DNA of 64,000 nt from Dehalococcoidia bacterium (GTDB lineage Bacteria > Chloroflexota > Dehalococcoidia > SM23-28-2 > RBG-16-64-32). Numbering within the stretch: position 1 is the first letter of the stretch; each line of letters opens with the position of its first letter. Both the position numbers and the translations under genes were made by a program. The notes under the pieces are model-generated. The model ran no database searches. It saw only the letters and a list, made by a program, of their open reading frames with translations, and was not told the origin of the DNA. Positions 15,051 through 19,478 of this stretch are shown here, in pieces. The stretch covers positions 37,846 to 101,845 of the forward strand of contig JBBDNA010000008.1 of NCBI GenBank assembly GCA_040877915.1, written 5' to 3'.

Positions 15051-15148
15051 TTTCGAACCTCCTTAGTCTTTCTGCAACCCGGGGGGACCGCTATGGAGTT
15101 GAGAATAGAAACTTTGTGCTATTTCTCGTAGGGGCATCTGGCAGAGAG

Positions 15149-15176
15149 TTGACAACTGCAACTGCACGTGTATCAT
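15149..15176 (+). promoter_or_regulatory. putative promoter of the helicase-nuclease gene
   Basis: TTGACA (15149-15154), a 16-nt spacer, then TATCAT (15171-15176), located in an AT-richer divergent intergenic region. Confidence 0.4.
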
Positions 15177-15266
15177 TCAGGCACCCCGCGCGGCGCCCGC
15201 ATGGATAGCTGATGGGGTTGGGTGCAGCCCTGGCCGAATGATTCCGGTCTGGAGGGTCGGTTTGAG

Positions 15267-18200
15267 ATGCGCGATTGGAGTGCCCGATCGCCGGACGATA
15301 ACTCAGAACGGGCTGATGCGCAGGACGTTCTCCAGGAAGAGGCGGTACGCGAGGGAATCAAGCTGCCGGATTCGGTAGCCGGCTTCTCTGAGCGGCGGGT
15401 GGCTTTAGTTCACCGCGCTGTCAGAGAGTGGACCCACAATCTAATCGATCTCGGAGGCCGCAACAACATGCTAAACTACCGCGACCTCAAGCGCGGAACA
15501 CTCGACTTGACGGTCGCGGAAAAAGCCGCGCTGTCAAAGCTTCTTGAGGGAAAGACGACCAGGATATCGGCTCTTATTCCTGGTGATGAAGACCGGGAGA
15601 ATGCCCTGAGCCGAGTGCGAACGATCTTCAAGAAGGCGTCAGAGAACTTTGAAGAGCGGGGTATCGAGACGCTGTCGCTCGCTTGTGGTCTAGCGACGTG
15701 GCACAACCCTAAGTCGACATGGCAGCCCCGCGCCCCGGTTCTCATCAGACGTGCCTCACTACATCCCGTGGGCGCTGCACAGGAGGACTTCGAGCTCACC
15801 TTGCTGGAGGACATGGAGGTTAGCTCAGTCCTTGTGCATGTTCTTCGAGTCGAGTTCGAGTGCGAGGTAGATCAGGAGTACTTGTTCGAGCGTATAGAGG
15901 GCTCGATTGATGAGACGTGGGAACTCAACGAAGCGTACGAGTGGATCGCCCGAGAGGCGAACAGCGTGCCTGGCTTCAGCGTCGAGCCGCGCCTCGTGTT
16001 GGCGAACTTCGCCTACACAAAGCTGCCAATGGTTCGAGATCTCGAGGGAGCCTTTGAGGATATTGTTGCGCATGACCTGATCGCTGCGATCGCGGGCGAC
16101 GAGGATGCACGGGAGGCAGCCCGATCTGCCTCGCCTGAGCCAGAATCTGTTCCTTCCCCCGACATTGTTCCCTCTCAGAGTGAGTTTCTGATCCTTGATG
16201 CGGATGCTTCACAGAGTTACGCGATCAATGCCGTCATCGCGGGCGCCAATCTGATCATTAGGGGCCCTCCCGGAACCGGAAAGAGCCAGACCATCGCGAA
16301 CCTCATTGGGTCGCTTGCAGCCCAAGGAAAGAGGACACTGTTCGTCGCTGAGAAGCGCGCAGCCATCGAAGCCGTCCTCAAACGACTGCGGCATGAGAAG
16401 CTCGACGATTTAGTCGTGGACCTTCATGGCGGGCTCGGCTCGCGGCGTGAATTCGCTCAATCCATCGGACGAGCGCTCGACTCCATCCCTATGACTCCTC
16501 CGGTGGACAACGCGGATGAGCATCGTAGGCTGGACCGACACCGGGAGGGGCTCAACCGATACGCCGCAGCTCTGCACGACGTGAGAGAGCCGTGGGGCTT
16601 ATCGGCATATCAGGTTCGCGTCCAGCTGATGAACCTGGAGCGATCGAGATGTGAAACGAGGTTTGTCGGGGAAGCCTTGACGTCACTCACTGAGGAGTCA
16701 GCCCGTCGGCTACAAGAAGAGATCGAAGAATACGTCCATCTAGGTGGACCCCATTTAGAATTGAGCCCGTGGGCAACCTCAACGGTCGCCTCAAACCGGG
16801 ATGTAGCTGAGGCCTATGAGCAGGTCAGGACGTCGCGCCAAGTGCTCCTGCCGCGGGCTTCCCAATTATTTCGGTCGACAGTTGCTGAAACTAGCTTTCA
16901 AGAACCGCCATCACTGAATGACTGGGAACCGAGACTCGATCTGCTCGATGAAGTCGGCAAAACGCTCAGGTTGTTCACGTCAGCTGTCTTTGAACACGAT
17001 CTTGACGACTTGTGCAAGGCACTCGCGCCAGCGCACACTGGCAGGCTGTCTCGGGCATGGGCATCCCTGACATCAGCTGATTACCGGCGGGCACGTCGGA
17101 CGCTAGTGCAACAGCTGCGCGAGGCCGTGAAGGCAAGTGACAAAGAACTGCTGGACCGCTGTGAGCGCGCCCGAGATCAGTTACGAGCATGGCGGTCGTT
17201 TAGCACGACCAGTCAACCTTCTGTACCGGACGATCTCGATGCCGTGAACACGACGTTTGATGAACTGAGGGATGCGCTGGAGGCCGTGGAGAGATGGGTG
17301 GGGCTGAGCGGCCTGTGCGACCTTCCGCCCTCCAGTTTGGAAGTTCGGCTCCAGGCTCTGCTAGCCGACCGGGCGACCCTCGTGAACCTCCCAGACTTGA
17401 AACGCCTGCGAGCTTCGCTCAGCGAAGCAGGTCTCGACGAATTCCTAGAGGAGATGGAGGGCAGCGGTCAAGACTGGGTTGAGCGCTTCCGGTTTTCCTG
17501 GTTGCATTCGATACTCGATCACATCTCTTTGAATGATAGGCATATTGGGGGTTTTATCCCGGATGCGCACGACAAGACGGTCGCGGATTTTAGGCTGGAG
17601 GACCGATCCCACATCGATGCCACACCCGGACGCATCAGGAGGATCTGTGCCGAGAATGCTGTCGCCGCTCGAAGTGCATATGGTGAGCAAGATGAGATCG
17701 TTCGTCGCCAGGCTCGTCTCAAACGAAGGCACCTTCCAATTCGCGAACTGATTCGCTCTGCGGGTGACGTGCTCCTAGCACTGAAGCCGTGTTGGGCCAT
17801 GAGCCCGCTAGTGGTGAGTCAGCTCCTACCAACGAAGGCAGCATTTGATGTCGTTATCTTTGACGAAGCCTCGCAGATAACTCCGGCTGATGCCATCTCG
17901 TCCATACTGAGGGGGCGACAGTTGGTCGTCGCTGGTGATGAAAGGCAATTGCCTCCCAGCGCGTTCTTTGTTGCGGAAGGGCCGGAGGACGAGGAACCGG
18001 ACGATGACGAACTCAACGTACCTATCGTCGCTGGAACCAAGGGATTCGAGTCCATCCTCGACGCCCTCGCCGACCTTCTCCGTCCGCGGATGCTGCAATG
18101 GCATTATCGAAGCCGAGACGAGCGCCTAATCGCTTTCTCGAATGCTCACATCTACGACCGGATGCTCACCACATTCCCTGGCTCGCGGGGTGGCGAGGAG

Positions 18201-19448
18201 GTCCTTGGTCACGTACTGGCACCGTGGGACCCCGCCACCGATACGAACAGCCCGGCACCGGAGGTGAACACTGTGGTGGATCTAATTGTCGAACACTTCC
18301 GCGCCCGCCAGGCCGAATCGTTGGGCGTAATCGCCATGGGGATTAAGCACGCGAATCGCATCGAGGAGGCTCTACTGCAACGTCTTCGTGACGATCCAAA
18401 TTTGGAGGAGGAGCTGTCCGACGTTCTCGACCCGGAGCGTGAGGAGCGTTTTTTCATTAAAAACCTCGAGCGTGTTCAGGGAGACGAGCGGGACGCGATC
18501 ATCCTTACTGTCGGCTATGGGAAGAACGCCCGAGGCGACTTGCCCTATCACTTCGGCCCACTGCTACAGGAAGGCGGCGAGCGCCGGCTGAACGTCGCGG
18601 TAACCCGTGCCAAGAACCGAATGACCCTCGTTTCATCGTTCTCCGCACACGACATGGCACCCGGCCGGTCAGACGCCGAGGGCGTTAAGCTGCTCCGAGA
18701 CTATCTCCAATACATGGAGTCGCTCGGGCAGAATCTCGGTGACCGTGTGATGGAGAAGCCTGCCCTGAACCCCTTCGAGGCCGATGTTAGAGATACTCTC
18801 ACACGCCACGGGCTGAGATTGGTACCGCAGTATGGCACCTCCGGTTACTGGATCGACTTCGCAGTTCAACATCCGGAACGCCCCGGTGACTATGTACTCG
18901 CCCTTGAGTGCGACGGGGCGACCTATCATTCATCGCAGAGCGCTCGCGACAGAGATAGGCTGCGCCAGGAACAGTTGGAGCGCCTGGGATGGCGATTCTG
19001 CCGCATTTGGTCCGGCGACTGGTTTGCTAACAAGGAATCAGCCGTAAAGAAAGTGCTCTCGGCGTATGGGGATGCTCTCGCAGCTGATGCGGTCAATGCT
19101 CCCCCGATCCCCAAGCGCCGAGAGGCGTCCGAGCGTGAAGCTGGCCATGCGCCAGCCCCGTTGGCTCAGAGGTCAAGGAATGGCCCCAGACCGCGAACCT
19201 ACAGGTGGCAATCAGTTCAGAACTATTCGCTGTCGGAGCTCGTGCGGCTAGTTCGCTGGATCGAGTCCGACGGAATACTCCGAACTGAGGATGAACTTAT
19301 GGGCGAGGTTATGGAGGAGCTTGGCTTCCAACGACGCGGCAAGCGAGTTGTATCTCGTATCGCCCAAGCTATTCGTGAGGCTCGGCGCGAGCAAGCAGCC
19401 GCGGGGCCCCCCCGCCCCCTCCCCCTGCCACCACCCCCTTCCACCTGA
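15267..19448 (+). CDS. DUF4011-type N-terminus + Upf1/Dna2-like SF1 helicase (AAA_11/AAA_12) + PD-(D/E)xK DUF559-like nuclease + DUF3320-like C-terminus
   Basis: The ORF is open from GTG 15222. ATG 15267 has a GGAGGG 9 nt upstream. NMLNYRDLKRGTLDL (DUF4011-like). Walker A GPPGTGKSQT (16263-). DEAS (17862-17873). VVAGDERQLPPS. LQWHYRSRDERLIAFSN. VQGDERD. LNVAVTRAKNRM. Nuclease core ALECDGATYHSSQSARDRDRLRQEQLERLGWRFCRIW (about 18900-19010). DUF3320-like ELVRLVRWIESDGILRTEDELMGEVMEELGFQRRG. Visibly lower GC than its neighbours. Confidence 0.85.
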   Translation: MRDWSARSPDDNSERADAQDVLQEEAVREGIKLPDSVAGFSERRVALVHRAVREWTHNLIDLGGRNNMLNYRDLKRGTLDLTVAEKAALSKLLEGKTTRISALIPGDEDRENALSRVRTIFKKASENFEERGIETLSLACGLATWHNPKSTWQPRAPVLIRRASLHPVGAAQEDFELTLLEDMEVSSVLVHVLRVEFECEVDQEYLFERIEGSIDETWELNEAYEWIAREANSVPGFSVEPRLVLANFAYTKLPMVRDLEGAFEDIVAHDLIAAIAGDEDAREAARSASPEPESVPSPDIVPSQSEFLILDADASQSYAINAVIAGANLIIRGPPGTGKSQTIANLIGSLAAQGKRTLFVAEKRAAIEAVLKRLRHEKLDDLVVDLHGGLGSRREFAQSIGRALDSIPMTPPVDNADEHRRLDRHREGLNRYAAALHDVREPWGLSAYQVRVQLMNLERSRCETRFVGEALTSLTEESARRLQEEIEEYVHLGGPHLELSPWATSTVASNRDVAEAYEQVRTSRQVLLPRASQLFRSTVAETSFQEPPSLNDWEPRLDLLDEVGKTLRLFTSAVFEHDLDDLCKALAPAHTGRLSRAWASLTSADYRRARRTLVQQLREAVKASDKELLDRCERARDQLRAWRSFSTTSQPSVPDDLDAVNTTFDELRDALEAVERWVGLSGLCDLPPSSLEVRLQALLADRATLVNLPDLKRLRASLSEAGLDEFLEEMEGSGQDWVERFRFSWLHSILDHISLNDRHIGGFIPDAHDKTVADFRLEDRSHIDATPGRIRRICAENAVAARSAYGEQDEIVRRQARLKRRHLPIRELIRSAGDVLLALKPCWAMSPLVVSQLLPTKAAFDVVIFDEASQITPADAISSILRGRQLVVAGDERQLPPSAFFVAEGPEDEEPDDDELNVPIVAGTKGFESILDALADLLRPRMLQWHYRSRDERLIAFSNAHIYDRMLTTFPGSRGGEEVLGHVLAPWDPATDTNSPAPEVNTVVDLIVEHFRARQAESLGVIAMGIKHANRIEEALLQRLRDDPNLEEELSDVLDPEREERFFIKNLERVQGDERDAIILTVGYGKNARGDLPYHFGPLLQEGGERRLNVAVTRAKNRMTLVSSFSAHDMAPGRSDAEGVKLLRDYLQYMESLGQNLGDRVMEKPALNPFEADVRDTLTRHGLRLVPQYGTSGYWIDFAVQHPERPGDYVLALECDGATYHSSQSARDRDRLRQEQLERLGWRFCRIWSGDWFANKESAVKKVLSAYGDALAADAVNAPPIPKRREASEREAGHAPAPLAQRSRNGPRPRTYRWQSVQNYSLSELVRLVRWIESDGILRTEDELMGEVMEELGFQRRGKRVVSRIAQAIREARREQAAAGPPRPLPLPPPPST

Positions 19449-19478
19449 CGCCGCGCGTCGCCTACCATCCCTTGCGCT

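Follow-up and report, generated by a model that had tools for sequence, protein, structure and literature searches.

What is a lone gene for a large helicase-nuclease, of foreign composition, doing beside a phage-type capsid gene in the genome of a Dehalococcoidia bacterium? The gene lies on the plus strand at 15267..19448 of a 64,000-nt stretch of DNA (positions 37,846 to 101,845 of contig JBBDNA010000008.1, assembly GCA_040877915.1), which is called the window in the following. It had been picked out by an earlier reading of the bare sequence, the original prediction, as a horizontally acquired candidate for a single-gene defence system. We could show that the gene is intact, foreign and alone and that all catalytic motifs of its helicase and its nuclease are conserved. 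A role in defence is plausible, as the best-scoring models for the encoded protein (PDC-S37, Hhe and ProA) are all defence models.

An intact, foreign and lone gene

Starting from the ATG at 15267, the open reading frame (ORF) runs without interruption over 1393 amino acids (aa), and the NCBI protein model (P0001) is 100% identical to it and begins at the same ATG. An alternative GTG start at 15222 would give an ORF of 1408 aa (15222..19448, plus strand); residue numbers below refer to the 1393-aa form. The GC content is 0.587 over 15180–19390 compared to 0.682 in the left and 0.707 in the right flank, and this is the lowest-GC 4.2-kb stretch within the window. Recomputing the three 60-nt counts from which a lower-GC island had been proposed gave the same values (0.45 for 16861–16920, 0.483 for 17521–17580 and 0.733 for 19561–19620). 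At third codon positions the GC content (GC3) is 0.638 in the helicase gene against 0.91–0.96 in all neighbouring genes, and the synonymous codon choice is far from that of the host, with GAA making up 0.32 of the Glu codons where the host has 0.07, and GGC 0.41 of the Gly codons where the host has 0.72. The gene of the closest homologue (locus L001, 76% identity) likewise has a GC3 of 0.67 next to neighbours of 0.82–0.92, one small ORF excepted.

For a comparison of synteny we used the gene directly downstream, which encodes a protein of 653 aa, and collected through it 160 related loci, 80 from genomes (L003–L082) and 80 from metagenomes (L167–L246), each with a flank of up to 8–10 kb. Those that carry a name are nearly all from Dehalococcoidia or Chloroflexota. 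A homologue of the helicase is present in none of the 160 loci, at any coverage, and the relatives with the same gene layout as the window carry other genes at this position, just as the suspected indel would have it. The right junction of the insert could be mapped between about 19389 and 19408. The homologues end with the C-terminus ...AIREARR(L), whereas the ORF of the window runs on with EQAAAGPPRPLPLPPPPST up to its stop codon; DNA homology to the gene of the closest homologue stops near 19388, and from about 19403–19411 onwards the window can be aligned with the helicase-free loci L003–L008, over the conserved region that precedes their 653-aa gene. Since both homologies switch at this place, the last ~15–20 codons of the ORF together with its TGA are host sequence, and the non-homologous 3' extension (19389..19448, plus strand) puts the junction inside the 3' end of the gene, where it had been expected. 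The stop codon falls within a host element (19408..19478, plus strand) that is conserved ahead of the 653-aa gene in genomes with the inverted layout described below. In the alignment with L003–L008 it reads CTGCCAC..CCCCTT.CA...TA[GC][CG]AT followed by 9–10 nt and an ATG, with ~18 nt separating its two conserved parts. These resemble -35 and -10 boxes positioned for a leaderless mRNA, and the element may possibly be a promoter. On the left side, the 5' region of the capsid gene and a TAGAA...TAGGGG.ATCTGGCAG motif are common to the window, L006 and L008, and the DNA upstream of the closest homologue shows no homology to the window before about 15260. Judged from these alignments, the insert is essentially one ORF, reaching from about 15.15–15.26 kb to about 19.39–19.41 kb. 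Because of its composition, its absence from the 160 related loci and the mapped junctions, the helicase gene is a real insertion that was acquired horizontally and stands alone, and in this the original prediction was right.

Two putative expression signals precede the ORF, a Shine-Dalgarno-like GGAGGG (15251..15256, plus strand), read directly from the sequence 10 nt before the ATG at 15267, and a promoter-like TTGACA-16-TATCAT (15149..15176, plus strand), which agrees with the consensus at 11/12 positions. As shuffles of the region yield about one such promoter-like site by chance, the latter alone proves nothing. Its hexamers TTGACA and TA..AT align with TTGACA...TACAAT in the relative L006, where a different gene lies downstream and the spacer is unaligned. 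This is suggestive only, and the site, which had been taken for the gene's own promoter, may be a host promoter belonging to the position and not to the insert. No terminator-like site was found after the ORF. We also considered an insertion by an integrative element or a prophage, the hallmarks of which would be an integrase or transposase gene, direct repeats on both sides or a tRNA gene as target, and rejected it: the insert carries one gene only and comes with no integrase, no flanking repeat pair or attachment-site-like sequence was found around 15.1–19.5 kb, and there is no tRNA gene in the window. A metagenome scan for a near-identical relative with an empty site gave nothing closer than 71%, so that the insertion is not finely datable.

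Domain architecture and family placement

Conservation of the protein was followed in an alignment of 26 homologues with 53–76% identity, and all domains named here lie on the plus strand. The N-terminal DUF4011 domain (15438..15812; Pfam PF13195, E 3.5e-11, 43.7 bits, cut-off 22.2) contains many residues that are invariant in this alignment. Behind it lie the N-terminal part of the first RecA domain (16203..16394; Pfam AAA_11, E 3.2e-17, with matches to IGHMBP2 and UPF1), which carries the invariant Walker A motif GPPGTGKSQT (16263–16292), the invariant helicase motifs II (DEASQ) and III (AGDERQLPP) at 17862..17957, and the C-terminal part of the second RecA domain (18261..18638; Pfam AAA_12, E 4.3e-10), which holds QGDERD and RRLNVAVTRAK and is likewise invariant in these. 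The full motif set of a superfamily 1 (SF1) helicase had been predicted for an uninterrupted ORF, and every motif lies exactly where it had been placed (GPPGTGKSQT at 16263, DEAS at 17862, GDERQLPP at 17934, YRSRDE at 18105, QGDERD at 18477 and VAVTRAK at 18594, followed by ECDG at 18906 and RIW at 19002 in the nuclease). In residue numbers, the invariant helicase motifs are Walker A 333–342, DEASQ 866–870, AGD..QLPP 889–897, WHYRS 945–949, QGDERD 1071–1076 and RRLNVA.TRAK 1106–1116. The nearest solved structures by sequence are IGHMBP2 (6e-14), DNA2, UPF1 and SEN1, all of them SF1B Upf1-like helicases, and the protein shows what characterizes this group, namely Walker A, a DExx motif II, motifs III, V and VI and similarity to Upf1, IGHMBP2 and Dna2. 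A solved structure of a close relative was not found in a sequence search of the PDB.

The C-terminal nuclease (18774..19061) matches the Vsr/DUF559-type PD-(D/E)xK family MTES_1575 (Pfam PF18741) with E 2e-34 and 118 bits (cut-off 38.2), and a weaker Pfam DUF559 match overlies the same residues. Its invariant residues are D1197, E1214-C-D1216-G, Y1220-H1221, RDRDRLRQ 1227–1234 and R1246-I-W. For aa 1130–1393 AlphaFold predicted an alpha/beta core (predicted local distance difference test score, pLDDT, 80), for which Foldseek found as best PDB matches the catalytic domain of the homing endonuclease I-Bth0305I (3r3p, probability 1.00, template modelling score, TM, 0.75) and the DUF559 protein NGO0050 (3hrl, probability 0.99, TM 0.70). 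The predicted structure therewith confirmed the Vsr/DUF559-type PD-(D/E)xK fold that had been read from the sequence. The protein ends in a predicted three-helix bundle (19230..19388, aa ~1322–1374; AlphaFold helices H193–204, H212–223 and H230–250 of the model, pLDDT 92–98) that is conserved in the family, for example at W1331 and G1358. The DUF3320-like tail claimed for this region had to be given up: the last 119 aa show no Pfam match to DUF3320 even at E ≤ 10, and PF11784, which we take to be its Pfam accession, is absent from the precomputed domain lists of the 120 closest homologues.

The helicase carries between its motifs Ia and II an insert of ~440 aa (16464..17786), all alpha-helical in the AlphaFold model (pLDDT 84–93 over aa ~420–760) and matched by no Pfam family above its cut-off, which is a candidate regulatory or sensor module. 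A HEPN domain was considered for it and rejected, as HEPN_AbiU2 reached just 14–16 bits against a cut-off of 26.8 and no invariant Rx4-6H was seen in the alignment. The model of aa 1–1150 is mediocre (pLDDT 65), and a fold search with it gave weak matches to Upf1, Setx, Sen1 and Dna2 alone and none for DUF4011 or the helical insert.

Across all libraries the best model was PDC-S37 of PADLOC (E 5.3e-272, 904.1 bits, three stretches), whose best stretch places aa 668–1391 on positions 728–1447 of a model of 1550 positions; membership was judged by the significance of the hidden Markov model match alone. With PDC-S37 the protein shares the single-gene organisation, the length class and the architecture of DUF4011, SF1 helicase and MTES_1575. 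Among the candidates examined more than 4,000 proteins match at E ≤ 1e-10, and the 120 best homologues are about 1,250–1,520 aa long, 53–76% identical and nearly all of the same Pfam domain set, apart from two truncated proteins without DUF4011. They are distributed patchily across phyla at ~55–60% identity, with Chloroflexota, Gaiellaceae, Dormibacteraeota and Trebonia among the named sources. By these scores the protein is a member of the catalogued candidate family PDC-S37 and its architecture is already known, so that no new type of system is present here. The original prediction, to which no characterised member of this architecture was known, is superseded by thousands of proteins of the same ~1,370-aa build, by the PADLOC entry and by the sister relationship to named anti-phage proteins.

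These named relatives are Hhe and ProA, both called anti-phage by NCBIfam. Hhe (HheA), the discovery of which is reportedly due to Gao et al. 2020, has in common with the window protein the DUF4011 N-terminus, the Upf1-like SF1 helicase, the Vsr-type nuclease and the organisation in a single gene, and is known as cargo of mobile elements. The PADLOC model of Hhe matches with E 3.5e-138, and the combination of DUF4011, SF1 helicase and Vsr-type endonuclease in one protein is found here with all Pfam matches above their cut-offs. The window protein differs in being ~400 aa shorter than the 1797-position model and in having no detectable DUF3320. Among phage-defence systems Hhe is treated as a validated helicase-nuclease encoded by a single gene, and class II DNA-metabolism genes of T7 and gene 40 of Bas63 behave as its triggers (bioRxiv 10.1101/2024.10.10.617714), and hhe has been described as a cargo gene swapped between mobile elements (PMC11551731). 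ProA, for which no describing paper was found in the literature, has the same domain order; WP_302074231.1 (1963 aa, Klebsiella variicola plasmid pLY161), which as a positive control scored 2223.6 bits with the ProA model, is 38% identical over the second RecA domain and the nuclease and 26% identical over the half formed by DUF4011 and the helical insert. Other members of the ~1,370-aa clade (P0005, P0086 and P0038) reach ~880 bits for ProA and 644–660 bits for Hhe. As the clade members all score alike and below both equivalog cut-offs, they form a distinct, shorter sister subfamily.

A further comparison, with the Nhi-type nuclease-helicases, had been drawn originally. Nhi and Dna2 carry a nuclease of another type at the N-terminus. 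They share with the window protein the fusion of an SF1 helicase and a nuclease in one polypeptide, and Dna2 also the helicase motifs, whereas here the nuclease is C-terminal and Vsr/DUF559-like and the order of the domains is thus reversed. No Nhi entry appeared among the 13 PADLOC families matched at E ≤ 0.1, although whether the release holds an Nhi model was left unchecked, and the analogy found no support in them.

A possible role in defence and its alternatives

In all nine contexts, that of the window and eight further ones, the gene stands by itself, and no partner gene recurs among them. The closest homologue lies at a different locus, adjoining greA and a gene for a class II aminoacyl-tRNA synthetase; just 3' of its stop codon, at about 9985–10060 of L001, we observed ~5 tandem copies of a 15-nt unit (GAGGTATCGAAGGGT). 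One homologue is located beside a DISARM-like operon (MmeI-type methylase, 1185-aa helicase, MZB/DUF1998 and PLD), one has HNH_5, DUF5677 and PIN_8 neighbours, one belongs to an element with integrase, AAA_25 and HTH genes, and one stands beside two integrases, a transposase and an AAA_16 protein. At 12380–15742 of L247 the PDC-S37-type gene is directly followed by an SF1 helicase fused to RNase_H_2 (1120 aa), which may be a pair of helicase-nucleases. Distant, ProA-type relatives occur on 477 plasmid records, mostly conjugative or mobilizable and 207 of them conjugative, and almost never in phage genomes; one plasmid-borne relative is flanked by insertion sequence (IS) elements and an AbiJ-like gene.

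We consider it fairly probable that the gene is a recently acquired single-gene cassette, encoding a stand-alone helicase-nuclease of the Hhe/ProA superfamily and the PDC-S37 subfamily, that acts in defence from a variable slot between the capsid gene and the 653-aa gene. The mechanism suggested by its homology and by the reports on Hhe would be as follows. The protein would be made from the sigma-70-like promoter in the slot and be held inactive by DUF4011, the helical insert and/or the C-terminal bundle until it meets nucleic-acid structures specific to an invader, for example replication intermediates or free 5' single-stranded ends. The Upf1-like SF1B motor would then translocate 5' to 3' with ATP and the Vsr-type nuclease would nick or cut the DNA, by which either the phage or plasmid genome would be degraded or the infection aborted.

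Several points weigh against a defensive reading. The substrate, polarity, trigger and outcome would all be carried over from homologues. The protein stays below the equivalog cut-offs of NCBIfam for ProA (NF058533, 847.4 of 1500 bits) and for Hhe (NF042953, 632.9 of 2000 bits), and it is missing the ~330 N-terminal and ~250 C-terminal residues, the latter annotated as DUF3320, by which the 1963-aa ProA is longer. PDC stands for 'phage defence candidate' (PMC11514479), so the family is a candidate only, and we found no paper in the literature that describes or tests PDC-S37. A DUF4011 gene belongs to the core genome of P. aeruginosa (PMC10250203), and members of the family thus need not all be defensive; in three of the eight further contexts the homologue lies among ordinary metabolic or housekeeping genes. 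PADLOC recognizes the helicase but gave no match for ten other proteins of the window. A defence island in the window was rejected on these missing matches and on the housekeeping character of the remaining neighbours (GNAT, Fe-S oxidoreductase, RuvB, F420-dependent reductase, PEBP and EamA). Of the original claim, the lone acquired gene was upheld, while the defence role is inferred and not shown.

The protein might instead be directed against plasmids or serve in conflicts between elements, either by attacking conjugative or transforming DNA in the way of DdmDE-type systems or by acting for a competing mobile element. The plasmid records just mentioned, with 207 conjugative ones and the relative between IS elements and the AbiJ-like gene, speak for it, as do the homologues in integrase-bearing elements and weak fold matches of the nuclease domain to DdmD. 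These fold matches have a probability of 0.13–0.23 only, NCBIfam names Hhe and ProA anti-phage and Hhe is in use as a phage-defence system; we hold this alternative to be unlikely, even if the present data do not separate phage from plasmid targets. A laterally acquired helicase-nuclease of DNA repair or replication with no immune role, processing ends or flaps like Dna2, would agree with a helicase core most similar to IGHMBP2, DNA2, UPF1 and SEN1, with the DUF4011 gene in the P. aeruginosa core genome and with the several homologues among housekeeping genes. Its absence from all 160 related loci means that the lineage does not require the protein, and its foreign composition, both here and in the genome of the closest homologue, the defence models as best matches and the patchy distribution across phyla make such a housekeeping role quite improbable. 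That the gene is a non-functional passenger, decaying or unexpressed after loss of its own stop, or a chimera in the assembly is very improbable: about 19 host codons did replace the native C-terminus and stop, no terminator-like site follows and the source is a metagenome-assembled genome, but the 4.2-kb ORF is uninterrupted, none of the residues that are invariant in the family for catalysis or structure is lost, nothing is missing from the C-terminal bundle up to ...REARR, and upstream of the ORF there are a promoter-like site and a Shine-Dalgarno sequence. For a chimera, the assembly would have to contain two wrong joins which on either side happened to re-create the synteny of the host, from the capsid gene to the 653-aa gene.

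The phage-derived cluster and its variable slot

The surroundings of the cassette deserve a closer description. On its left lies a major capsid gene of the epsilon15 gp7 type (14163..15050, minus strand; NCBIfam MCP_gp7_epsi_15, 198.6 bits, cut-off 75; PHROG 212, E 7e-71) with a GC3 of 0.939, copies of which are 65–86% identical in related genomes, and further on an SU10-type adaptor gene (12095–12730) that has host composition like the capsid gene. On its right follows the 653-aa gene (19479..21440, plus strand), which is present in all 160 related loci with 30–73% identity. Its product has no match in Pfam, NCBIfam, PHROG or PADLOC, nor among PDB sequences by profile; the gene is tied to the phage genes by conserved synteny alone, and from its position after the adaptor gene one could guess that the product serves as nozzle or tail tube in a podovirus-like particle. 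The helicase had been described as lying between divergent phage structural genes, which applies to the capsid side, whereas the right-hand gene has no family match and is linked through synteny.

In the relatives the usual order is capsid gene, one to three poorly conserved genes, adaptor gene and 653-aa gene, all co-directional, with ruvB 0.1–4 kb further on; the conserved cluster also holds a 141-aa gene and has host-like codon usage. Of 80 loci, 37 have a coiled-coil scaffold-like gene upstream of the capsid gene, 18 an SPP1-type portal gene and 9, as far as it is within reach, a terminase gene, which agrees with the expectation that portal and terminase genes belong there. In the 64 kb of the window itself, homologues of the portal, terminase and scaffold genes are all missing. 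The identities of the capsid, the 653-aa protein and RuvB to one reference genome correlate with each other (r 0.83–0.96, n = 16), which speaks for a common vertical inheritance and against prophages that integrated again and again. The prophage remnant assumed originally is therefore not the right picture, as the phage-like genes have host composition and conserved synteny with ruvB across the class, and the cluster looks domesticated, perhaps in the manner of a gene transfer agent (GTA). We found no mention of a ruvB-linked cluster of this kind in the literature. In the window the RuvB equivalog (505 bits) is encoded at 21901–22932, after the 653-aa gene and before an F420-dependent reductase-like gene, and does not adjoin ruvA or ruvC. 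Short IMG/VR contigs of 4–8 kb (L083–L089) carry capsid genes 82–84% identical to that of the window and may be copies of the chromosomal cluster mis-filed as viruses.

In the window and its closest relatives L006, L008 and L011 the block from capsid to adaptor gene has the reverse orientation with respect to the 653-aa gene. The divergent gap that results from this inversion holds a different cargo in each genome, namely the helicase-nuclease in the window, in L006 a set of three genes (one without family match, one with NHL/beta-propeller and one with cohesin/TSP3 domains) and in L008 an Lcl_C-domain gene, and PADLOC gave no match for the cargo genes of L006 and L008. Some 53 nt from the 3' end of the adaptor gene occur a second time 195 nt away (11917–11969 and 12112–12163, 89% over 38 nt), the copy falling into the intergenic region by the Fe-S oxidoreductase gene, and this may be a scar of the inversion. 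Further away, a full-length c-di-AMP riboswitch is found at 24356–24487 on the minus strand (Rfam RF00379, 70.2 bits, gathering score 38).

Hotspots of defence genes inside P2/P4-like prophages and satellites have reportedly been described by Rousset et al. 2022. Both there and here a variable cargo slot is located between conserved phage-type genes, and related genomes carry unrelated genes at the same position. In contrast to P2/P4, the framing cluster is inherited vertically with the chromosome and the other cargoes seen are surface-protein-like and not defence genes. It is possible, if rather doubtful, that the class-wide cluster is a particle system, domesticated, GTA-like or otherwise co-opted, of which our searches found no description, and that its variable slots are chromosomal hotspots for the swapping of accessory and defence genes as in P2/P4.

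The gene as such adds only modestly to what is known, as a clean natural example from a very large and untested family related to Hhe and ProA. Its merits are those of a recent cassette with mapped junctions from Chloroflexota, a phylum with little-studied defence systems, and the ~1,370-aa PDC-S37 form, which lacks the extra ends of ProA, could be a convenient minimal protein for studies on sensing and cutting. The surroundings matter more, since phage-like genes that are co-inherited with ruvB raise the question of a domesticated particle system in Dehalococcoidia.

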